A stretch of 64,000 nucleotides of DNA. Origin: Escherichia phage vB_EcoM_E9. The notes beneath the pieces are model-generated. The model ran no database searches, was not told the DNA's origin, and saw only the letters and a list, made by a program, of their open reading frames with translations. This document shows, one piece after another, positions 6,316 to 62,291 of this stretch. Location of the stretch: the sequence record PP886229. One strand, 5' to 3'. How positions within the stretch are numbered: the first letter of the stretch is position 1; every line of letters starts with the position of its first letter. Both the position numbers and the translations under genes were made by a program.

Positions 6316-7448
6316 TATGCCTCCCCTGTTGGGTTAACTGTAACTGTTGCCGCATTAGATGTTACAGAGCCACCTGCACCAGTTACTACACAAGTGTAAG
6401 AACCTGCATCAGCAGCAGTTGCACCTTCTTTGGTGTAAGTTGCAGCAGTTGCGTCTGGGATGACTTCCTCACCTTTCTTCCACTGGTAACCTGTTGCACC
6501 AGTTGCCACAACATTCAGCGTTAAGGTCTCACCTTCAGTGATTTCTTGATTTGCTGGCTGTTGAGTGATTACAGGAAGAGCATTCACAGTAACTGTCGCT
6601 GCATTAGATGTGACTGAACCACCTGCACCAGTTACAACACAAGTGTAAGAACCTGCATCTGCTGGAAGCGCACCAGTCTTGCTATAGGTAGCATTTGTAG
6701 CTGAAGGGATGTTAGAGCCATCTTTCTTCCACTGGTAACCTGTTGCACCTATTGCAGTCACTTCCAAGTTGATGTTTCCACCCTCATTAATGGTCTGACT
6801 AGAAGGTTGCTTGGTAATCACTGGTAGTGCATTAACAGTAACTGTTGCCGCATCTGAAGTAACACTTGTTCCAGCCTCTCCAGACACAACACAAGTGTAT
6901 GAACCAGCATCAGAAGGTGCTACGGATTGTTTTGTGTAAGTTGCAGAGGTAGCACTGGAGATGTCCTCACCACCCTTCTTCCACTGATATCCAGTGGCGT
7001 TAGTTGCAATAACACTTAGGGTAAGTGTTCCACCCTCATTGACCGTTTGGTTTGTTGGTTGTTGAGTAATTGCTGGTGGCTTAATAGCATCCTTCAGCTT
7101 AGCATTCAACATTGAGAAAGGTTTAACTCTTGCCAGCCATTCACAGTAAATTGTGTCAACATCTTTACCGTTGATGATTGCATACTGTAAATCCATGAAG
7201 AAATCAGCAGTCCTCATCTGTGCACCAACACTGTAAAGGAGTTCATCACTAAAAGGGACTTTGTAGTCTGGTTTGTAGTCAAACTTCTCAACCTCTGCGA
7301 TATCAGCTTCAGGCCAATATGAACTATAGGTAAGTGGTAAAATAGCCTCTTGATATGTTCTAAAATCATATCTCTTACCAGCCTTTACATTTGCAATGAA
7401 GCCCTTTACAAATTCTTTGAAGTCTGGATAAGTCTTTGCTTTAATCAT
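6315..7448 (-). CDS. Ig-like domain protein (three tandem Ig-like repeats) with N-terminal domain paralogous to the next gene
   Basis: 377 aa; three ~80 aa repeats each ending ATGYQWKKG...DAGSYTCVV...ATVTV; DNA shows three ~250 bp tandem repeats. Confidence 0.7.
   Translation of the reverse strand: MIKAKTYPDFKEFVKGFIANVKAGKRYDFRTYQEAILPLTYSSYWPEADIAEVEKFDYKPDYKVPFSDELLYSVGAQMRTADFFMDLQYAIINGKDVDTIYCEWLARVKPFSMLNAKLKDAIKPPAITQQPTNQTVNEGGTLTLSVIATNATGYQWKKGGEDISSATSATYTKQSVAPSDAGSYTCVVSGEAGTSVTSDAATVTVNALPVITKQPSSQTINEGGNINLEVTAIGATGYQWKKDGSNIPSATNATYSKTGALPADAGSYTCVVTGAGGSVTSNAATVTVNALPVITQQPANQEITEGETLTLNVVATGATGYQWKKGEEVIPDATAATYTKEGATAADAGSYTCVVTGAGGSVTSNAATVTVNPTGEA
6330..7060. repeat. 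Three tandem ~250 bp coding repeats encoding the Ig-like domains
   Basis: Near-identical stretches such as CCACTGGTAACCTGTTGCACC recur at ~6480, ~6725 and ~6975. Confidence 0.7.
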
Positions 7449-7816
7449 TTCTTTTTAGCCTCTAAACGTGCGTTTAATCTGAAATAGCCTTTATGTTGTG
7501 GAGACACATCACCAACAACAATACCTTCAACTTTATAACCCTTACCGATTACATACTGGATATCCATAAGAAACGTACCAAGCCCAACAATGTGGAACAT
7601 TGGGTATAGTAACTTATCTGAATCTGGAAGTTTGATGTCTGGGTTATAGGTAGGTTGCTCGGCAGTTGGTGTAATATCCTCTTCAGGCCATCTACTCATT
7701 CTCCATGTTAAAGGTGATGAAATAACATCGTTAAGATTGTATTTTTCACCATTCTCCACGGAGCGGATATAGGATTGTAGGAAGCAATAAAAGTCTTTTG
7801 CACTCTTAGCCTTCAT
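7445..7816 (-). CDS. hypothetical protein, paralog of the N-terminal domain of the Ig-like protein
   Basis: 123 aa; shares the WPE(A/E)DI...FMD(L/I)QY(A/V)I motif pattern with the 6315-7448 product. Confidence 0.55.
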   Translation of the reverse strand: MKAKSAKDFYCFLQSYIRSVENGEKYNLNDVISSPLTWRMSRWPEEDITPTAEQPTYNPDIKLPDSDKLLYPMFHIVGLGTFLMDIQYVIGKGYKVEGIVVGDVSPQHKGYFRLNARLEAKKK

Positions 7817-7863: not shown

Positions 7864-8454
7864 TTAAGCTTTGGTCTTAAGTAGGTTCTTAAGCTTTTTG
7901 AGATTCATGCTCTCGTCAAACTTAAAACCAAATCCATTGACATAATCAATGAACTCGGATTTCTTACTAAGTGATAGTGCGTAACTCATATCAAAGTTAT
8001 TACTTGTTTCTGCGTCTGGACTAGAGTTCACATCAAATGAAATTTCTGTAGGTTCTTGTTTGCTGCTTCTCATATTATCAATCAATAGACAGGTATAGTT
8101 TGCTGGATAGAAGTTAACACTCCCGTCAACATACCCATACTTATTATTGTGAATGAGACTGGAAAATACCTTAAGAAATGTTTCTGAGTCGTGGCATACA
8201 AGTTTGAATTGACTACATTCACCAAGAGCCACTAAAGAGTAAGGGCTTTCACTATCAATGTCATAATTCGGATTTGATGTTGTAACCGTCACACGCATCA
8301 GGTTATTGGCAATAGTCTTCTGCTTAAAAGAATTTGGAACATAGTGAAGACCTCTGTCACACTGGTTAACCAACTCTTTCAATAGGTCGTTTGCATATGG
8401 TGAGTTAATTGATACAGAGCCATCACTATTGTAATTAAAACTTACTGTTAACAT
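7864..8454 (-). CDS. hypothetical protein
   Basis: 196 aa ORF. Confidence 0.5.
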   Translation of the reverse strand: MLTVSFNYNSDGSVSINSPYANDLLKELVNQCDRGLHYVPNSFKQKTIANNLMRVTVTTSNPNYDIDSESPYSLVALGECSQFKLVCHDSETFLKVFSSLIHNNKYGYVDGSVNFYPANYTCLLIDNMRSSKQEPTEISFDVNSSPDAETSNNFDMSYALSLSKKSEFIDYVNGFGFKFDESMNLKKLKNLLKTKA

Positions 8455-8946: not shown

Positions 8947-9073
8947 TAGGCTTATAAATACTTAGAAGATAACTTAAAAGGTTCCTCTAAAAAGGCTATT
9001 TAAACAGATATCTTTCTGGATATCTATCTTTTATCTTAAAAGCCTTTTAAGAGGTCTTATAAGAGGCATACCA

Positions 9074-9526: not shown

Positions 9527-10942
9527 ATGAGCGAATTATTTAAACATGCGCACCTTCATGTAGGTCGAACTGAAAATGGTGCTGTAAACCATACTTCATC
9601 AATGTCTGCTCTTGTGGACTTTTACAAAGCTGCTGGTTCCAGCCGTAGTAATGTAGAAATCTTACCAGACTTGTTCTACAAAGCTTTGCGTGAGGATGTT
9701 GATGTTGCAGTTCGTATTTTACTGCATATGCGAGATGTACGAGAAGGTATGGGTGAGCGTAAAGCTTTCCGAACTGTTTTACTTCAAGCGATTGAAGATA
9801 AAGTTTTAGAGCCTACACAGGTTCTTCGCATTATGGATAAGATTGCAGAACTTGGTCGTTTTGATGACTTCAAAATCTTCGTAGGTACTCGTTTTGAGAC
9901 AGATGCCTTCAAACATTTAGAAGCAGCATTACTAGACCCTGCAACATCAGGTTTAGCGGCTAAGTGGTTACCACGAGTAAAACCACGCCACAAACAGTTT
10001 GTAAAACGTTTCTGTAAGTTTGCAAACTTAAGTGAGAAGGAGTATCGCACACTGTTATCTGCACTGTCTGATACGGTTGAGCAAAAAATCTCTGCTAATG
10101 AGTTTGGTAAGATTGACTACAGCAAGATTCCTTCACTCGCTGCTGCACGTTACCAAAAGCTCTTTAACCGTAAAGATGGGGAACGTTACAAAGCTTACAT
10201 TGAGTCCTTATCAAAAGGTGAGGCTAAGATTAACGCTGGTGCTGTTTACCCATACGATGTGATTAAATCTATCAAGTATGGTAATGCAGATGTTGCTAAT
10301 GAGCAGTGGAAAGCACTACCAAACTGGATGGCAGAAGGTGAGAACATCTTGTGTATGACTGATGTTTCAAGCTCAATGTCTTGGGTGAATATTGGTTCAA
10401 TCACTGCCCTTGATATTGGTGTATCACTTGCTTTGTATGTAGCAGAACGCAACACTGGTTGCTTTAAGAATGAGTTAATGGTTTACTCAACAAACCCTCA
10501 CTTCATCGAACTGAGTGGTGATTTACGAAACCGTCATCGTCAGGTAATGCGTCATGTTGAATATGGTTCAACTAACTTACAAGCAGCTTTTGACCGTATT
10601 CTTGAGGTAGGTAAGCGAAACAACTTGACTCAGAAAGATATGCCAAGTAAGCTTATTATCTTCTCCGATATGGAGTTCAATCAGGTTGATGGAGCTAACG
10701 GTCGTACAAACTTTGAAGCAATTCAGAGTAAGTACAAAAAAGCTGGATACGAAATGCCACAACTAGTATTCTGGTACTTAGCAAACCGTAATGGTACTTG
10801 CGAAGTATCTGTTAAGGATAATGGTGTAGCGATGGTATCAGGGTTCTCTCCAGCCACTTTAAAAGCTCTGCTTGGTGGTGAGAAGTTTGACCCAATCAGC
10901 GTAATGCTCAAAGCAGTAATGATTGACCGTTACATCTGGTAA
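9527..10942 (+). CDS. von Willebrand factor A (vWA) domain protein with large N-terminal domain (TROVE/DUF2828-like suspected)
   Basis: 471 aa; MIDAS-like DxSxS motif (CMTDVSSSMSW) in the C-terminal half. Confidence 0.55.
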   Translation: MSELFKHAHLHVGRTENGAVNHTSSMSALVDFYKAAGSSRSNVEILPDLFYKALREDVDVAVRILLHMRDVREGMGERKAFRTVLLQAIEDKVLEPTQVLRIMDKIAELGRFDDFKIFVGTRFETDAFKHLEAALLDPATSGLAAKWLPRVKPRHKQFVKRFCKFANLSEKEYRTLLSALSDTVEQKISANEFGKIDYSKIPSLAAARYQKLFNRKDGERYKAYIESLSKGEAKINAGAVYPYDVIKSIKYGNADVANEQWKALPNWMAEGENILCMTDVSSSMSWVNIGSITALDIGVSLALYVAERNTGCFKNELMVYSTNPHFIELSGDLRNRHRQVMRHVEYGSTNLQAAFDRILEVGKRNNLTQKDMPSKLIIFSDMEFNQVDGANGRTNFEAIQSKYKKAGYEMPQLVFWYLANRNGTCEVSVKDNGVAMVSGFSPATLKALLGGEKFDPISVMLKAVMIDRYIW

Positions 10943-11108: not shown

Positions 11109-11185
11109 CTCTGTTTAGCTCAGCTTGGTAGAGCGTTCCGTTTGGGGCGGTAAGGCCGGAGGTTCAAGTCCTCCAACAGAGACCA
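11109..11185 (+). tRNA. tRNA-Pro (anticodon TGG)
   Basis: 7-bp acceptor CTCTGTT/AACAGAG, D-arm GCTC..GAGC, T-arm GGAGG-TTCAAGT-CCTCC, 3' CCA. Confidence 0.7.
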
Positions 11186-11607: not shown

Positions 11608-11695
11608 GTGTCGTTATCCCGTAGATGGTAGCGGTGGGGACTGTAAATCCCTTGTCATTGAGACTCGGTAGGTTCGACTCCTACACGGCACACCA
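11608..11695 (+). tRNA. tRNA-Tyr (anticodon GTA), long variable arm
   Basis: Acceptor GTGTCGT/ACGGCAC, anticodon stem GGGGA/TCCCT, T-arm GTAGG-TTCGACT-CCTAC, 88 nt. Confidence 0.7.
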
Positions 11696-11701
11696 AATAA
11701 A

Positions 11702-11779
11702 GGTTATGTAGTTTAATCTGGTTAAAATACTCCCCTGTCACGGGAGATGATGTGAGTTCAAGTCTCATCGTAACCGCCA
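11702..11779 (+). tRNA. tRNA-Asp (anticodon GTC)
   Basis: Acceptor GGTTATG/CGTAACC, anticodon stem CTCCC/GGGAG, CCA. Confidence 0.7.
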
Positions 11780-13024: not shown

Positions 13025-13107
13025 ATGGGACGATGTTAAGACTCTAAGGCATGAGCAACGGCCTCCAAAACCGTTTCAAAGGGGTTCAACTCCTCCGTCC
13101 CATGCCA
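13025..13107 (+). tRNA. Atypical tRNA-like sequence, anticodon unassigned
   Basis: Acceptor ATGGGAC/GTCCCAT plus T-loop-like GGGGTTCAACTCC and CCA, but no clean D-arm or 7-nt anticodon loop. Confidence 0.3.
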
Positions 13108-13120
13108 AAGTCTTATTAGG

Positions 13121-13208
13121 GGTAGGTAGCGGCTAATGGCAGCCAAACAGTCTTGAAAACTGTTGCCACTGTAGAGATACGGTGAGGGTTCGACTCCTTT
13201 ACTTACCG
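13121..13208 (+). tRNA. tRNA-Ser (anticodon TGA), long variable arm
   Basis: Anticodon stem ACAGT/ACTGT, loop CTTGAAA, long variable arm, T-loop TTCGACT; no encoded CCA. Confidence 0.6.
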
Positions 13209-13364
13209 CCTAATAAGATTTACACCGTCCATGCTTGCTCGCATTTTCGGTTTATCCCTCGTGTATTGTCGTACACTGATAAAGCACCTAGCAGGTGTCA
13301 CGGAGAAGAGATAATATCAAGCTCTCCAAAGGTTCTAGTCACCGGATTAAACAAGACTATGCAA

Positions 13365-13463: not shown

Positions 13464-13541
13464 GGGAGATTGACGGTAATTGGTAAACCTACCATCCTTA
13501 GAAGTTGGTGTTTGAGGGTTCGAATCCCTTGTCTCCTACCA
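13464..13541 (+). tRNA. tRNA with apparent anticodon TAG (Leu-type) but short variable arm; identity uncertain
   Basis: Acceptor GGGAGAT/GTCTCCT, T-arm GAGGG-TTCGAAT-CCCTT, CCA; 78 nt. Confidence 0.5.
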
Positions 13542-13548
13542 AATTAAT

Positions 13549-13624
13549 GCAGGTGTAGCAAAATGGTTATGCGGCTGACTCTTAATCAGTAAGACGATGG
13601 GTTCAATTCCCTCCACCTGTACCA
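13549..13624 (+). tRNA. tRNA-Lys (anticodon CTT)
   Basis: Anticodon stem GCTGA/TCAGT, loop CTCTTAA, CCA. Confidence 0.65.
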
Positions 13625-13630
13625 AACAAT

Positions 13631-13706
13631 GGGGTCATAGTTTATATGGTTAAAATTCTAGTTTTGCAAACTTGGGAACTGAGTTCAATTCTCAGTGACT
13701 CCACCA
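13631..13706 (+). tRNA. tRNA-Ala (anticodon TGC)
   Basis: Acceptor GGGGTCA/TGACTCC with the G3:U70 wobble typical of tRNA-Ala; CCA. Confidence 0.75.
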
Positions 13707-13712
13707 ATTAGT

Positions 13713-13787
13713 GCATCCATAGTTTAAACGGGAAAATTACAGTCTTCCAAACTGAGGTTGAGGGTTCGATTCCCTCTGGATGCTCCA
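13713..13787 (+). tRNA. tRNA-Gly (anticodon TCC)
   Basis: Perfect acceptor GCATCCA/TGGATGC, loop CTTCCAA, CCA. Confidence 0.7.
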
Positions 13788-13794
13788 AATTAAT

Positions 13795-13870
13795 GCTCCT
13801 ATCGTATAATTGGCTATTACGGTTGCCTTGTAAGCAACTTATCAGGGTTCGAATCCTTGTGGGAGCACCA
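13795..13870 (+). tRNA. tRNA-Thr (anticodon TGT)
   Basis: Anticodon stem GTTGC/GCAAC, loop CTTGTAA, T-loop TTCGAAT, CCA. Confidence 0.7.
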
Positions 13871-13874
13871 ATTT

Positions 13875-13961
13875 AGAGGTCAAGTGAAAGACCGCTTTGA
13901 GTCAACTGAAGACCGTAACAAATTCCACGGAGTTGAGTTAGCGGCACAACTTCAGACCTCT
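13875..13961 (+). ncRNA. Stem-bounded ~87 nt non-tRNA element (AGAGGTC ... GACCTCT) containing GAAGACC motifs
   Basis: 7-bp terminal inverted repeat 13875-13881/13955-13961; no T-loop consensus. Confidence 0.3.
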
Positions 13962-13966
13962 TTAAT

Positions 13967-14041
13967 ACTCGCTTAGTTTATATGGTAAAACACCACCCTT
14001 ACAAGATGAAGAAAAAGGTTCAAGTCCTTTAGTGAGTACCA
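13967..14041 (+). tRNA. tRNA-Val (anticodon TAC), weak anticodon stem
   Basis: Acceptor ACTCGCT/AGTGAGT, D-arm GTTT..AAAC, T-arm AAAGG-TTCAAGT-CCTTT, CCA. Confidence 0.5.
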
Positions 14042-14042
14042 T

Positions 14043-14120
14043 GTTCCAGTATCCCAATTGGTAGAGGATGCAAGCTCAAACCTTGCACTAGTGACGGTTC
14101 GAATCCGTCTTGGAACACCA
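14043..14120 (+). tRNA. tRNA with anticodon CAA (Leu-type) but class I architecture; identity uncertain
   Basis: Perfect anticodon stem GCAAG/CTTGC, loop CTCAAAC, T-arm GACGG-TTCGAAT-CCGTC, CCA. Confidence 0.55.
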
Positions 14121-14125
14121 ATTTT

Positions 14126-14201
14126 GCAGGATTAGTTCAAATGGATAGAGCAACAGTCTACGAAGCTGTTAATAGGGGTTCGAATCCCTTATCCTGCACC
14201 A
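14126..14201 (+). tRNA. tRNA-Arg (anticodon ACG)
   Basis: Perfect acceptor GCAGGAT/ATCCTGC, loop CTACGAA, CCA. Confidence 0.7.
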
Positions 14202-14219
14202 ATTAAGTAAGAGGGATTT

Positions 14220-14462
14220 ATGCAAACATTAATAGTCGTTGAACATGAAAATTCCAATAGCATTGAGTTTGTAAGGGTTCCCACTATAGATACCCACATT
14301 TTCTTGAAAGTCGGCTGGGGATGCGACCCAATAAGAGTAGAAAAATTTATTGGTCATTGCTTTGGTGGAAGACAACTTAAAAGTGTCAATTTTGAGACAA
14401 TGCTACCAGAAAACTCAGAAACAAATAATAATGCTTACCTCCTTACGAGGATTAGACAATGA
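14220..14462 (+). CDS. hypothetical protein embedded in the tRNA array
   Basis: 80 aa ORF in a tRNA-free gap, stop overlaps the next ORF start. Confidence 0.4.
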   Translation: MQTLIVVEHENSNSIEFVRVPTIDTHIFLKVGWGCDPIRVEKFIGHCFGGRQLKSVNFETMLPENSETNNNAYLLTRIRQ

Positions 14463-15016
14463 GATACTTAAAATATGTTTCATGGATTTTCTTAGCTTTG
14501 TTAGAGCCATTTGCAGCAATCTTAGCAGTTATCTTAGCACCTTTTGTAGTTCCATTTTACAGTGAGAAGAAAGGACACTTACCTTTCGGATTTAGATGGA
14601 TGGAAACTTATGACAACCCGATTGATGGTGATGAAGGTCATGTCAAACGATGGGCTAAGATTAGAAAGATTGGTAAGCTTGGTGTCTATTTACAGAGAGT
14701 TGGATGGCTCTGGAGAAACAAAGCTTATAACTTCTCTTACCATGTGTTAGGAAGAGATGTAAAAGATGTTACTAAGTGGAAAGGTAATATCAACGTAAGC
14801 TCTGACCCTGAAGATAATCAGACAGGTTATCTCCTAATGTGGAACAGTAATGCTTGGGGATTATTCGCTTTTATCCCATCAATTAAAGTCTTTGGTAAAC
14901 AATTCTACTGGAGAATTTATGTTGGATGGAAACTTAAAAGTGTTGTCCCAGAAGAAAGAGCATTCTCAAGGGAAAGAGTTATGTTGGCATTCTTTATTCA
15001 TCCACTAAGAAAGTAA
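14459..15016 (+). CDS. putative membrane protein embedded in the tRNA array
   Basis: 185 aa; N-terminal hydrophobic helix (WIFLALLEPFAAILAVILAPFVVPF). Confidence 0.5.
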   Translation: MRYLKYVSWIFLALLEPFAAILAVILAPFVVPFYSEKKGHLPFGFRWMETYDNPIDGDEGHVKRWAKIRKIGKLGVYLQRVGWLWRNKAYNFSYHVLGRDVKDVTKWKGNINVSSDPEDNQTGYLLMWNSNAWGLFAFIPSIKVFGKQFYWRIYVGWKLKSVVPEERAFSRERVMLAFFIHPLRK

Positions 15017-15024
15017 AGATTTAA

Positions 15025-15100
15025 AGGGGATTAGTTTACAAGGTTAAAACCTCGGTCTTTGAAATCGAAGAAGTTGGTTCAATTCCAACATCCCCCGCCA
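15025..15100 (+). tRNA. tRNA-Gln (anticodon TTG)
   Basis: Anticodon stem TCGGT/ATCGA, loop CTTTGAA, T-arm GTTGG-TTCAATT-CCAAC, mismatched 1:72 pair. Confidence 0.6.
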
Positions 15101-15102
15101 AT

Positions 15103-15181
15103 GCTCCATTACTCCAATTGGCAGAGAGGCCAGACTTAAAATCTGTGTTATGTATCGGTTCGAATCCGATATGGAGTACCA
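15103..15181 (+). tRNA. tRNA with anticodon TAA (Leu-type) but no long variable arm; identity uncertain
   Basis: Acceptor GCTCCAT/ATGGAGT, loop CTTAAAA, T-arm ATCGG-TTCGAAT-CCGAT, CCA. Confidence 0.5.
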
Positions 15182-15375: not shown

Positions 15376-15451
15376 AGTCCAAGTAGCTTATATGGTTAAA
15401 GCGCGTGTCTGAAAAACATGAGAAGAGGGTTCAAATCCCACTGGACTACCA
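15376..15451 (+). tRNA. tRNA-Phe (anticodon GAA)
   Basis: Loop CTGAAAA, T-loop TTCAAAT, acceptor 3' strand CTGGACT, CCA; overlaps the GTG start proposed by the ORF track. Confidence 0.55.
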
Positions 15452-15467
15452 ATTTCAAAGGTGCTTA

Positions 15468-16202
15468 ATGAAAGAGATGACAGAACAAGGTAAGGAGATT
15501 TTTAATCTCTTAAAAACCGGTAGAGGGTTTTCTAACCCCCTTATTACTGGTGCAGCAGTTCTCGGTGGAACCGTAGCTGCCTCTACATCACTTGTAAGCT
15601 CTATTAGCTCTGTAACAGACCCTACAATAAAGGATAAGCTTGTTGCTGCTGGGCTTACAACAGTTCTGCTTAATAGCTTTACAACGAGTCTGACAAGCAC
15701 TACATCAACTACTAAGACACTGACAGATTACGGTCAAAAGTCCATTGATGAGTTTTCATCACGTATGCAGGTAGCAAAAGGATATTCCAATGTTATGGGT
15801 GCAGCAGGAGAGCAAGTCGGTTGTACGCCATTTAGTGGTATTATGGGTGTTGCTACAGAATATGGTCAAAAAGCTATTGACACGATTAACAACACGTTAG
15901 ACAGTGTTAATGATGTATTAAGTGACTTACAAGATGCTATTGATAAAGGTCTTGATACTGTTTCTGATTTAGCTAACCAAGCTGTTAGCAAGATTAATGA
16001 AGGTATCTCGAAGATTACAGCTTATGCAGATGAAGTTGTGCAGATGATTGAAGAAGAAGCTGCCCTTATTGCAGAGTACCTTAAAACGAATATCAATGGG
16101 TTCTTAGCAGGTATCTTACCAGACTGGTTTGACGATGCTTGTAAAACTGGTGTGATTGACACTATTGCAACACAAGAAATGAAGAACGCATTACAGAAAT
16201 AA
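15468..16202 (+). CDS. hypothetical Ser/Thr-rich protein with N-terminal hydrophobic segment
   Basis: ORF track 15405..16202 starts at a GTG inside tRNA-Phe; in-frame ATG at 15468 (MKEMTEQ) clears the tRNA. Confidence 0.5.
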   Translation: MKEMTEQGKEIFNLLKTGRGFSNPLITGAAVLGGTVAASTSLVSSISSVTDPTIKDKLVAAGLTTVLLNSFTTSLTSTTSTTKTLTDYGQKSIDEFSSRMQVAKGYSNVMGAAGEQVGCTPFSGIMGVATEYGQKAIDTINNTLDSVNDVLSDLQDAIDKGLDTVSDLANQAVSKINEGISKITAYADEVVQMIEEEAALIAEYLKTNINGFLAGILPDWFDDACKTGVIDTIATQEMKNALQK

Positions 16203-60056: not shown

Positions 60057-62291
60057 ATGATTAAGACAATTAAAAAATCAAACGGTACAGTAGTAAACTT
60101 TGACCCAGAAAGACTGAATAAGTGGGCATCATGGGCAGACAAGCGTGGAATTATCTGGTCAGAAGTCACTATGGAAGCCATGAAGCGTGTCTATGAGGGT
60201 TGCACTACAAAAGAGATGCACCAAGCCATGATTGATGTTTGTGTTGATAAACAAACTCAAGAGTACTCAGATATGGCTGGACGGCTACTTCTAGGAATTA
60301 TCTACAAAGAAGCCTTTGGAGGCTTTACTAAGGTTCCTACGCTGGTTACCTTCGTTAAAAATATGGAGAGAGCAGGACTTTGGGAGAAGATGGACTATTC
60401 TCAGGAAGAGCTTGAATACCTGCAAGGGTACATTGTGCACTCAAAAGATATCTCTTACGGTTATGCAGTCCTGAAACAGTTTAGAGACAAGTATGGTATC
60501 CGTGATATTAAAACGGGAAGACTTTTTGAGTCACCGCAGTTTATGTTTATGGGTATGGCTATGAAAGCCTTCGAGAAGCAACCAAAGCACCGTAGACTGC
60601 AAGATGTTATCAAGCTGTACACTTACCTATCTGACCTGAAGATTAATGCTCCTACGCCTTATCTGAATGGTTTAAGAGCTACTAAATCAGGTTATGCGTC
60701 ATGCTGTTTGATTAAGGCAAATGATACTGCTGAATCACTTGGTATTGCTGCAAAGGTTGCTTATGATATGACTACAAAGCAAGCTGGTATTGGGATGCTG
60801 ATGGAGACTCGTACTATTGGTGATGGTATCCGTCAAAATACTATTGAGCACATGGGTAAACTACCTTATTACAAGCTTGTACGTTCATCTGTAGAGGCAA
60901 ACAAACAGAAGAGTCGTGGTGGTTCAGCTAACAACTTCTACACCGCTCTAGACCCGCAGATTGAAGATTTACTGCGTTTGAAGCACCCTACAACGGTTCC
61001 TTCGAAACGTATTAACGAGATGGACTACTCATTTGGTACAAATGATTATTTCTGGCAGTGTGTTCAATATGATACAGACTGGTTGCTATTCTCTTACAAG
61101 GATGCGCCAAAACTCTATGACATGTTCTACACAGCATCTGCTGATGAGTTTGCTATGGCAGTTGGTCACGCAGTACATTCAGGTGTTAAGCACAGACGAG
61201 TAAAGGCTCGTGAAATTGCTAAACTGTTTATCCAGCAGCGTTATGCAACAGGTCGTGTGTATCCATTCTTCACAAATAATGCAAACACACATACACCATT
61301 TAAAGAGCCTTTGAAGATGTCAAATCTTTGTATGGAAATTGTGTTGCCAGTGTACGGCTTTGAGAAAGAGACAGACCTTTACAGAGATGATGCTGTGAAA
61401 GAGGATGGTGAGGTAGCTCTTTGCTTCCTAGCTAGTTTGGTTGCAGGGAGAATTTCAGAAGATGAATACGCTGACGTTGCTTATTATGCTCTTGCAATGG
61501 TTGACTCCGTTATTGACCTTATGGATTATCCGTATCCGTCGATGCGTAACCATGTTCAGAAGCGTCGTTCTGTTGGTATTGGCCTTACAAATGTGGCTCA
61601 TTACCTTGCAAAAAATTACGTGAACTACTCTTCAAGAGCAGGTAAGACGAAGCTTCATGAGCTTGCTGAAATGCACTCTTACTACTTACACGAAGCTTCT
61701 TTAAGACTTGCTAAAGAACGTGGTGTACCTGAGTATATGCAGTTCACTAAGTATCCTGAAGGTTGGGTTCCTCCGAAGACAGCTAACAGGAAGATTGATG
61801 AGAAGCATGATGCAAAACTTCGTTATGATTGGGATGACTTAGCACAACGTATTAAAGAAAATGGTGGAATCCGTAACTCTGTATTAGAAGCTTACATGCC
61901 TAATGAGAGTTCTTCACTGGCAACTAATACGACAAACGGCTTGTACCCAATTCGTGACTTTATTTTAACTAAAAAGTCTGCAACTGGTAACGTACTGTTT
62001 ATTGTTCCAGATTACGAAGAGTTGAAGTATGTCTATGAAATTGCTTGGGATATTGATACCTTTGACCTGATTGATTGTTATGCAATTGTTCAAAAGTTCA
62101 CTGGTCAAGCTATCTCTTCAGATTTCTATGTTGACTACGCAAAAGCTAAGAAGGTATCATTGTCTCAAGCTTTGAAGTACATGATTTATGCCAACTCAGT
62201 AGGTATGAAAACCATGTATTACCTTAACAGTCGCATTGGTGTAGGTAAATCTGCACTGCAAGATGCTTATTGCGAGGGTTGTGGTGTTTAG
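60057..62291 (+). CDS. nrdA: ribonucleoside-diphosphate reductase, large (alpha) subunit, class Ia
   Basis: 744 aa; N-terminal ATP-cone-like region; active-site SNLCMEIVLP motif. Confidence 0.85.
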   Translation: MIKTIKKSNGTVVNFDPERLNKWASWADKRGIIWSEVTMEAMKRVYEGCTTKEMHQAMIDVCVDKQTQEYSDMAGRLLLGIIYKEAFGGFTKVPTLVTFVKNMERAGLWEKMDYSQEELEYLQGYIVHSKDISYGYAVLKQFRDKYGIRDIKTGRLFESPQFMFMGMAMKAFEKQPKHRRLQDVIKLYTYLSDLKINAPTPYLNGLRATKSGYASCCLIKANDTAESLGIAAKVAYDMTTKQAGIGMLMETRTIGDGIRQNTIEHMGKLPYYKLVRSSVEANKQKSRGGSANNFYTALDPQIEDLLRLKHPTTVPSKRINEMDYSFGTNDYFWQCVQYDTDWLLFSYKDAPKLYDMFYTASADEFAMAVGHAVHSGVKHRRVKAREIAKLFIQQRYATGRVYPFFTNNANTHTPFKEPLKMSNLCMEIVLPVYGFEKETDLYRDDAVKEDGEVALCFLASLVAGRISEDEYADVAYYALAMVDSVIDLMDYPYPSMRNHVQKRRSVGIGLTNVAHYLAKNYVNYSSRAGKTKLHELAEMHSYYLHEASLRLAKERGVPEYMQFTKYPEGWVPPKTANRKIDEKHDAKLRYDWDDLAQRIKENGGIRNSVLEAYMPNESSSLATNTTNGLYPIRDFILTKKSATGNVLFIVPDYEELKYVYEIAWDIDTFDLIDCYAIVQKFTGQAISSDFYVDYAKAKKVSLSQALKYMIYANSVGMKTMYYLNSRIGVGKSALQDAYCEGCGV

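Follow-up and report, generated by a model that had tools for sequence, protein, structure and literature searches.

The stretch of DNA analyzed here (the window, about 64 kb of Escherichia phage vB_EcoM_E9, record PP886229) belongs to a Felixounavirus, one of the Felix O1-like myophages that infect Salmonella and E. coli and have genomes of about 87 kb. On its + strand, ARAGORN places an array of 26 tRNA genes between positions 11109 and 16376, of which the Rfam tRNA model recovers 24 at its gathering score. Within this array lie three genes with leucine anticodons, namely tRNA-Leu(UAG) at 13464-13541, tRNA-Leu(CAA) at 14043-14120, and tRNA-Leu(UAA) at 15103-15181 (all on the + strand), and these genes are the subject of this report. 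The 5.5-kb stretch around them is 96-97% identical to Felixounavirus genomes. In textbooks and in annotation heuristics, a long variable arm is treated as a hallmark of bacterial tRNA-Leu; the three phage genes lack it.

RESULTS

The three tRNA-Leu genes have short, unpaired variable loops

ARAGORN gives lengths of 78 nucleotides (nt) for Leu(UAG), 78 nt for Leu(CAA), and 79 nt for Leu(UAA), which count the encoded A73-CCA (75, 75, and 76 nt without CCA). With 40.0, 46.2, and 47.5 bits, respectively, all three score above the gathering score of the Rfam tRNA model (RF00005, 29 bits) and thus belong to the tRNA family. In the ARAGORN cloverleaf and its domain split, the variable region reads UGUUU (5 nt) in Leu(UAG), ACUAGU (6 nt) in Leu(CAA), and GUUAUGU (7 nt) in Leu(UAA), in each case without a stem, and none of the three has the stem-loop arm of roughly 10 nt or more that defines class II. 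Identical processing of tRNA-Leu from E. coli K-12 (leuW, leuX, and leuZ), T5, and T4 returned variable regions of 13-15 nt. Long arms are also kept within the same array, by tRNA-Tyr (88 nt) and by both tRNA-Ser (90 and 93 nt). Each of the three genes combines a leucine anticodon with a Leu-type D-arm (3-bp stem, 13·22 mismatch) and with a variable loop that is unpaired, spans 5 nt or more, and has nucleotide 48 as its last; these are the features of type I tRNA-Leu.

A preliminary description of the window, made by eye, had placed TAG, CAA, and TAA anticodons in these three genes and had reported 78-79 nt with no long variable arm. ARAGORN matches these calls exactly, and the variable loops of 5, 6, and 7 nt are not the product of a mis-fold. 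The same description had allowed that its anticodon-loop assignments might be off. We rejected this possibility, since ARAGORN, Rfam, and a covariance model of short tRNA-Leu (R1, see below) all place identical 7-nt loops, with the same anticodons and no hidden long arm. Minimum free energy folding of the single sequences was weak (the cloverleaf was not recovered for two of the three genes, and z-scores ranged from -0.3 to -2.3), and we therefore used comparative evidence instead. The Felix O1 genome paper of 2010 lists the same genes as tRNA-Leu with the same lengths and leaves their shape uncommented (PMC3185647, Table 1).

Leucine identity elements are present at the sequence level

The identity elements described for the E. 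coli leucyl-tRNA synthetase (LeuRS) are A73, the U8-A14 and A15-U48 pairs, the placement of G18G19 and A20a, and the elbow (PMC9976931; PMC6614811, introduction). According to the review of this field, the long arm is not crucial for this enzyme, nor is the anticodon, and older E. coli work summarized there found that a minimal tRNA-Leu lacking both the anticodon and variable arms was still charged and edited (PMC9976931). For the seryl-tRNA synthetase (SerRS), arm size is the major determinant (PMC9976931, Fig. 2 legend).

Compared with E. coli leuZ, leuW, and leuX, all three phage genes carry U8, A14, A15, G18G19, A20a, U48, and A73-CCA, with the discriminator A73 and CCA directly following the 7-bp acceptor stem, as well as the T-loop UUCGAAU (U54, U55, C56, and A58). 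The nucleotides of the U8-A14 and A15-U48 tertiary pairs are present in every case, and their pairing is predicted. The D-loops read AAUUGGUAGA in Leu(CAA), AAUUGGCAGA in Leu(UAA), and AAUUGGUAAA in the remaining gene, next to a host consensus of AAUYGGUAGA. The D-arm of Leu(CAA) is UCC-C13-AAUUGGUAGA-GGA, with a 3-bp D-stem and C13·A22, and that of Leu(UAA) is CUC-C13-AAUUGGCAGA-GAG, in a gene that also has a C27·U43 mismatch and a G1·U72 pair. With their 3-bp stem, 13·22 mismatch, and loop AAUUGGYAGA, the D-arms of the phage tRNAs are essentially of the host tRNA-Leu type. As far as sequence can tell, every identity element of the E. coli LeuRS is present in the three phage tRNAs.

Isotype scores from tRNAscan-SE have been published for Sf14, a relative with 26 tRNAs (PMC12482277, Table 2), the CAA gene of which is 96% identical to that of the window. 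There, the Leu model is the top-scoring one for all three genes (TAG, 67.4; CAA, 49.1; TAA, 60.2), and all are flagged “Consistent.” We also looked in the window genes for signatures of mischarging with alanine, serine, or histidine, and these candidates were rejected, as there is no G3·U70, no long arm or G73, and no G-1.

Short tRNA-Leu form a conserved and covarying class

Each of the three genes is conserved in 263-354 phage records and is thus not a chance match. Of these records, 215, Felix O1 itself among them, hold Leu(UAA) at 99% identity or more, and 239 hold Leu(CAA) at 95% or more. We assembled an alignment (A1) of 120 non-redundant short tRNA-Leu, 119 of them viral and one bacterial. 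Imposing on A1 a cloverleaf that has three D-stem base pairs and five variable-loop nucleotides leaves 97.8% of the cells paired, compared with 59.8% after shuffling and at most 47.8% when the structure is slid. Double-sided changes occur at 20 of 20 pairs, and the covariation score is 0.994 versus 0.230. These patterns indicate that the short-Leu cloverleaf with its 5-nt variable loop is under selection.

The covariance model R1 was built from A1 without Felix-like sequences, with no member more than 85% similar to the window genes. It nevertheless ranks the three Leu genes at the head of the 26 window tRNAs (UAA, 72.2; CAA, 71.0; and UAG, 58.4 bits), followed by tRNA-Glu (57.5) and tRNA-Arg (55.0). 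By this measure, membership in the type I class is clear for Leu(UAA) and Leu(CAA) and marginal for Leu(UAG).

Among the matches listed in the viral scans, the variable region of tRNA-Leu is bimodal in length, with one group of 167 unique sequences (4-7 nt) and another of 160 (9-25 nt), and at the same loci 133 of 135 tRNA-Ser and 58 of 58 tRNA-Tyr are long. In this set, short and long tRNA-Leu resemble each other and differ from other class I tRNAs in A73 (154/167, 149/160, and 628/1168, respectively), in U48 (165/167, 157/160, and 403/1168), and in the 3-bp D-stem (147/167, 144/160, and 189/1168). Thirteen short tRNA-Leu carry an apparent U73, the same number as those that start with U. A one-base shift by ARAGORN probably accounts for all 13; it was confirmed by eye for Lactobacillus phage LpeD, where the tRNA-Leu genes at 7371-7446 and 7711-7787 are called one base too far 5′ and a shift by one restores G1, U8, and A73. 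Position 13 tracks the architecture: among the matches listed, C13 (C13·A22) is found in 114 viral and 127 bacterial short tRNA-Leu, and G13 in 140 of the 148 classifiable long ones. Leu(CAA) and Leu(UAA) of the window carry this C13 signature of the main subclass, and Leu(UAG) has G13.

tRNA-Leu(UAG) is the irregular gene

Leu(UAG) has one extra nucleotide before A14, a U30·U40 mismatch in the anticodon stem, a G1·U72 pair, and A37, and it belongs to the G13 subtype; in the Rfam alignment, its acceptor register is off by one base. The extra nucleotide is found in four of four aligned Felixounavirus alleles and covaries with a D-loop purine (U...A becomes C...G in AN17P8). The U30·U40 mismatch is common to the homologs of IrisVonRoten and EspYZU08, and the neighboring pair changes from A-U to G-C. 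In an alternative Felixounavirus allele that is about 90% identical (phage momo), four of the five anticodon-stem pairs are changed in a compensatory manner. Judged by this comparison, the extra nucleotide and the U·U mismatch do not look like decay.

The G13 short subtype, with the D-loop GAAYUGGCAUA, is found in T5-like and Aeromonas phages and includes the window Leu(UAG). In its anticodon loop, phage Leu(UAG) reads CUUAGAA where host leuW reads UUUAGGU, that is, C32 for U32, A37 for G37, and A38 for U38 (see also PMC12482277, Table 8). Because of A37, the phage tRNA would have no m1G37 site. Divergence of this kind in the anticodon loop has been proposed to evade anticodon nucleases.

Leucine codons keep their meaning and match the three anticodons

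We aligned the NrdA protein of the window (60057-62291, identified by Pfam) with 43 homologs of 48-59% identity and recorded the homolog residues opposite its leucine codons. The seven UUA codons face 84% Leu in the pooled residues and the seven CUA codons 78%, with Leu in five of five conserved columns for each. For the ten UUG codons, the pooled share is 50% Leu, and the conserved columns hold two Leu and one Ile. The pattern resembles that of CUU and CUG, two codons without a phage tRNA. Within this one protein, UUA and CUA still mean leucine, and UUG is less clear-cut, with no sign of reassignment.

In 56 open reading frames (ORFs) of the window, TTA makes up 27.7%, TTG 12.7%, and CTA 11.2% of the leucine codons, together 52%. 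The Sf14 paper found TTA and CTA significantly enriched over the host (PMC12482277). Codon demand thus fits an ordinary supply of these codons by the Leu tRNAs.

Short tRNA-Leu are found in phages and bacteria

Distant phage regions that had given partial BLAST matches, with no gain in length, were passed to ARAGORN. Three tRNA-Leu each were found in Aeromonas phage AhP_Mru1 (Demerecviridae; 77 nt), Lactobacillus phage LpeD (Herelleviridae; 74-77 nt), and Erwinia phage phiEa21-4 (Kolesnikvirus; 77-78 nt), and two in E. coli phage IrisVonRoten (Tequintavirus; 77 nt), while tRNA-Ser and tRNA-Tyr stay long in all four of these arrays. In Cronobacter phage EspYZU08 (Seunavirus), a match of about 77 nt is 81% identical to the window Leu(UAG), within the 117-base stretch examined. 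In the classic T5-like phages BF23 and phage 5, Leu(UAG) is 77 nt long, as opposed to the class II tRNA-Leu of T5 itself (Tequintavirus; 85 nt) and of T4 (Tequatrovirus; 87 nt).

One slot in Tequintavirus, between tRNA-Ala and tRNA-Ser, holds either architecture, all in phages of enterobacteria: T5 has the 85-nt class II Leu(UAG) there (11625-11709), and the 77-nt type I Leu(UAG) occupies it in IrisVonRoten (8997-9073), phage 5 (1497-1573), and BF23. We considered whether the T5 gene is the IrisVonRoten/Felix gene plus an arm and rejected this, as the stems differ throughout. Since the stems of the T5 and IrisVonRoten genes are unrelated, the difference is better described as gene replacement in one slot than as a clean indel.

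The scan of IMG/VR used a pattern of Leu-type D-loop, NAR anticodon, and T-loop with either arm length. Among the matches listed, ARAGORN found short tRNA-Leu only at 10 loci, both forms at 5, and long forms only at 103, which puts arm-less Leu in about one-eighth of the sampled viral contigs with a Leu-type tRNA; these short and long frequencies are biased by the scan pattern and by the listing of matches. With a short-only pattern, short tRNA-Leu were found in at least 120 viral contigs of IMG/VR, T5-like coliphages included, and in at least 120 bacterial genomes (one per GTDB species). Among the bacterial matches listed, 98 loci are solitary chromosomal genes, mostly tRNA-Leu(UAA) of Actinomycetota such as Nocardia, Mycobacterium, Gordonia, Arthrobacter, and Bifidobacterium, and 16 lie in tRNA arrays. 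The view of the preliminary description that bacterial LeuRS substrates always have a long arm does not survive this census, nor the charging of a type I tRNA-Leu in Streptomyces coelicolor (PMC6614811). The class to which the phage genes belong is type I tRNA-Leu, known but under-appreciated, and the census shows how common it is in the tRNA arrays of phages and bacteria.

The chromosomal array of Cylindrospermum sp. NIES-4074 comprises 26 tRNAs in 8 kb, with five short tRNA-Leu that cover all five anticodons and with long tRNA-Ser and tRNA-Tyr. Every tRNA-Leu found in the arrays of this strain, of Moorena bouillonii, and of Micromonospora sonneratiae is type I, and in that respect these arrays are like those of phages. 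Leu(UAA) of the phage has no BLAST match among 5,426 complete E. coli genomes, so a host LeuRS would meet such a tRNA during infection only. In the literature searched, including work on Felix O1, Sf14, phage-tRNA evasion, Schlafen, OLD, and CRISPRi-ART, we found no description of a short-arm phage tRNA-Leu.

Salmonella phage FG1m carries a chimeric tRNA-Leu at 7999-8076, the 5′ two-thirds of which derive from Leu(CAA) and the 3′ end (the 3′ strands of the T-stem and acceptor stem) from Leu(UAA). The chimera implies that the two paralogous type I Leu genes recombined and that the roughly 1 kb between them was lost, including tRNA-Arg(ACG), two ORFs, and tRNA-Gln(UUG); the hybrid acceptor stem still mostly pairs.

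Other features of the array

Between tRNA-Arg and tRNA-Ser, at 13027-13101 (+), lies a tRNA-like element that neither ARAGORN nor Rfam at the gathering score calls. It has a cloverleaf-like fold (-28.4 kcal/mol, z = -2.79) with a 5-bp anticodon stem and a 9-nt loop (CCUCCAAAA) in which a CCA triplet occurs; its 3′ end reads ...G-CCA. It matches the Rfam tRNA-Sec model weakly (23 bits, gathering score 47) and scores 15.5 bits with R1. It could represent a degenerate tRNA-Trp or, alternatively, a tRNA whose anticodon loop has expanded. The adjacent tRNA-Ser(UGA), at 13121-13210 (+), scores 31.1 bits with Rfam (gathering score 29) and ends in GCC, being the only inspected tRNA without an encoded CCA; its homolog in phiEa21-4 is flagged as a “possible pseudogene.”

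Directly upstream of the array, at 9527-10942 (+), an ORF of 471 amino acids (aa) contains DUF2828 and DUF7788 and matches phrog_850, annotated “RNA-binding protein,” from end to end. This protein of an RNA-binding type, encoded beside the tRNA operon, may act on the array tRNAs. The array itself is interrupted by ORFs at 14220-15016 and 15405-16202 (+), which match phrog_14202 (80 aa), phrog_2143 (185 aa), and phrog_2114 (265 aa); the phrog_2114 protein is weakly similar to a GTP-binding-domain family.

DISCUSSION

Relation to known tRNA-Leu

The closest precedent is the type I tRNA-Leu(CAA) of S. coelicolor, with the 5-nt loop ACAGC, which the single LeuRS of that organism charges at about half the efficiency of type II (Fan 2019, PMC6614811). 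In that system, the minimal variable loop is five nucleotides including nucleotide 48, and U8-A14 matters for charging (PMC6614811). The phage genes resemble it in their leucine anticodon, their short variable loop (5 nt there), and the missing long arm, and likewise in occurring alongside class II tRNAs and a single LeuRS. They differ from it in being phage-encoded within a tRNA array, in carrying U48 and not C48, and in their loops of 5, 6, and 7 nt. All three phage tRNA-Leu are type I, whereas the Streptomyces tRNA is one of several; and the phage host is an enterobacterium, while the enterobacterial LeuRS of E. coli reportedly does not charge the Streptomyces tRNA. The common loop of phages and bacteria among the matches listed, ACAGU, differs from the Streptomyces loop only at nucleotide 48.

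Animal mitochondrial tRNA-Leu(UUR) and tRNA-Leu(CUN) also have the class I shape, and a bacterial-type LeuRS there reads mainly A73 and A14 (PMC9976931). Those tRNAs have a relaxed structure and a LeuRS dedicated to them, in contrast to the phage tRNAs with their canonical D- and T-loops (G18G19, UUCGAAU) and encoded CCA. With the class II tRNA-Leu of E. coli (leuZ, leuW, and leuX), T4, and T5, the phage genes share the anticodons, the 3-bp D-stem, U48, A73, a frequent G1·U72, and the D-loop signature A14 A15 U16 Y17 G18 G19 Y20 A20a R21 A22. What sets them apart is the variable region, which comprises 13-15 nt with a stem in class II and 5-7 unpaired nt in the phage genes; position 13, which is G or A in class II and C in two of the three phage genes; and the anticodon loop, where the phage genes differ from the host (C32, and A37 in Leu(UAG) for host G37).

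Function of the phage tRNAs

We consider it likely that all three genes encode real, working tRNA-Leu isoacceptors of type I, which are charged with leucine and serve normal decoding. This reading builds on the observed architecture, on the identity elements seen in the sequence, on membership in the type I family, on conservation accompanied by compensatory change, on the breadth of the distribution, and on the unchanged codon meaning; expression, charging by an enterobacterial LeuRS, and use in translation are what we infer from them. The host LeuRS would charge the phage tRNAs through elements that do not require the long arm, namely A73, the U8-A14 and A15-U48 pairs, G18G19 and A20a as placed in the Leu-type D-loop, and the elbow of the D- and T-loops. 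Once charged, the tRNAs would decode UUA, UUG, CUA, and perhaps other CUN codons, the three cognate codons making up 52% of the leucine codons of this AT-rich phage. Since three anticodon-matched genes are conserved across hundreds of coliphage and Salmonella-phage genomes, they would be expected to work.

Several observations weigh against this reading. When the type I tRNA-Leu(CAA) of S. coelicolor was offered to the E. coli LeuRS, the enzyme “could not leucylate” it, and it is described as specific for type II (PMC6614811); in structures of this LeuRS, the variable arm is touched by the C-terminal domain. On the opposite side stands position 48, which is C in the Streptomyces tRNA (PMC6614811) and U in the phage tRNAs; the E. 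coli enzyme reportedly needs A15-U48. Leu(UAG), with its extra D-region nucleotide and U·U mismatch, has the lowest Rfam score (40 bits) and with R1 stands at 58.4 bits, 0.9 above tRNA-Glu at 57.5; in Sf14, the margin of the Leu model over Ile2 for the TAG gene is just 1.7 bits (Ile2, 65.7; Lys, 63.4; PMC12482277). The D-loop statistics are partly circular, as the scans required AATTGGYAGA, and the codon test covers one protein with 7-10 codons per type and concerns the meaning of the codons and not the tRNA that reads them. For no phage type I tRNA-Leu did the literature searched yield data on aminoacylation, expression, or suppression, and the record of BF23 and phage 5 holds no functional or amber-suppressor note on their type I Leu.

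The failed charging of the Streptomyces tRNA, the only natural type I tRNA-Leu tested with the E. coli LeuRS (PMC6614811), together with the contacts between arm and C-terminal domain, could also mean that the phage tRNAs are made but are poor substrates or non-substrates of enterobacterial LeuRS, kept for another role as nuclease or toxin decoys, regulators, or processing signals of the operon; phage tRNAs are known to counter tRNA-directed defenses. We regard this as improbable, given that every sequence-level identity element of the E. coli enzyme is kept, including the U48 that is C48 in the uncharged Streptomyces tRNA, and that in earlier studies of E. coli a tRNA-Leu, even a minimal one, could do without the arm (PMC9976931). 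Moreover, the anticodons, anticodon loops, and encoded CCA are conserved, and nothing in a decoy role would call for three anticodons, each specific to one isoacceptor and fitted to enriched codons, which account for 52% of phage leucine codons. The irregularities of Leu(UAG), which some records label tRNA-OTHER, and the flagging of other array tRNAs as pseudogenes in the Felix O1 paper (PMC3185647) might instead suggest decaying class II tRNA-Leu that lost the arm by deletion and are nonfunctional. The chance of this seems to us very slight: Leu(UAA) and Leu(CAA) keep identities of at least 99% in 215 and at least 95% in 239 records, the allelic differences of Leu(UAG) are compensatory, the same architecture is seen, fully covarying, across 120 diverse sequences, and the long T5 gene is not the same gene plus an arm.

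The preliminary description had also raised a non-canonical identity, by which leucine codons would be read with another amino acid and decoding partly reprogrammed. The architecture is indeed unusual for a leucine anticodon, and the Sf14 TAG gene scores close to Ile2 and Lys (67.4 for Leu versus 65.7 and 63.4). This reading is hardly credible in light of the results above: the leucine identity elements are all present; Leu is the top isotype for all three Sf14 genes (PMC12482277); no Ala, Ser, or His signatures occur, and the remaining synthetases read anticodons that are absent here (identity rules in PMC9976931); and UUA and CUA lie at conserved leucine columns of NrdA (5/5 each, with 84% and 78% Leu overall). 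In addition, the affected codons are about 4% of the total, and misreading on that scale would be highly deleterious.

Loss of the arm

Of the three class II families, only Leu loses its arm, presumably because SerRS measures the arm and LeuRS does not. One idea is that the arm was lost through relaxed constraint and deletion bias, LeuRS having no need of it; a SerRS dependent on arm size would then leave only Leu free to go short.

A second idea, compatible with the first but tentative, and one that we think rather unlikely, is that arm loss is an adaptive counter-defense: the arm-less tRNA-Leu of phages and of mobile tRNA arrays would be invisible to effectors directed at the arm and would keep leucine decoding going when host tRNA-Leu is inactivated. 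Only Leu could take this route, LeuRS, unlike SerRS, not needing the arm, and one premise would be that nucleotidyltransferases of the AbiEii/MenT type appear to prefer class II tRNAs. As a corollary, enterobacterial LeuRS would have to accept type I tRNA-Leu as a substrate, against the published view of it as specific for type II. Septu and the PtuAB of retron-Eco7 cut the variable arm of tRNA-Tyr, and T5 tRNA-Tyr resists by virtue of a different variable loop (PMC13096335). T5 tRNA-Tyr, set against retron-Eco7/Septu PtuAB, and T5 tRNA-Lys, set against PARIS, are like the phage tRNA-Leu in that phage copies differ from host tRNAs at the site of the defense nuclease; the site in tRNA-Tyr is the class II variable arm (PMC13096335), and the link to tRNA-Leu is one of analogy only. 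In the literature searched, we found no defense system of enterobacteria directed at the tRNA-Leu arm.

Implications

The experimental paper on the bacterial exception calls type I rare and the E. coli LeuRS type II only (PMC6614811). The present results place arm-less tRNA-Leu in classic coliphage lineages (Felix O1 and BF23), in bacterial tRNA arrays, and on many actinomycete chromosomes, and the pattern of distribution offers a simple explanation of which class II family can lose its arm. For annotation, a short phage tRNA-Leu should not be flagged as a pseudogene or as a recoding signal. The finding is not a new decoding system; it contradicts a published generalization about the E. coli LeuRS and is directly testable, with the phage type I tRNAs as ready-made natural substrates for testing recognition by enterobacterial LeuRS. 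Conservation and codon match imply that the type I tRNAs of coliphages are charged in vivo; should this hold, the rules by which enterobacterial LeuRS recognizes its substrates would need revising.

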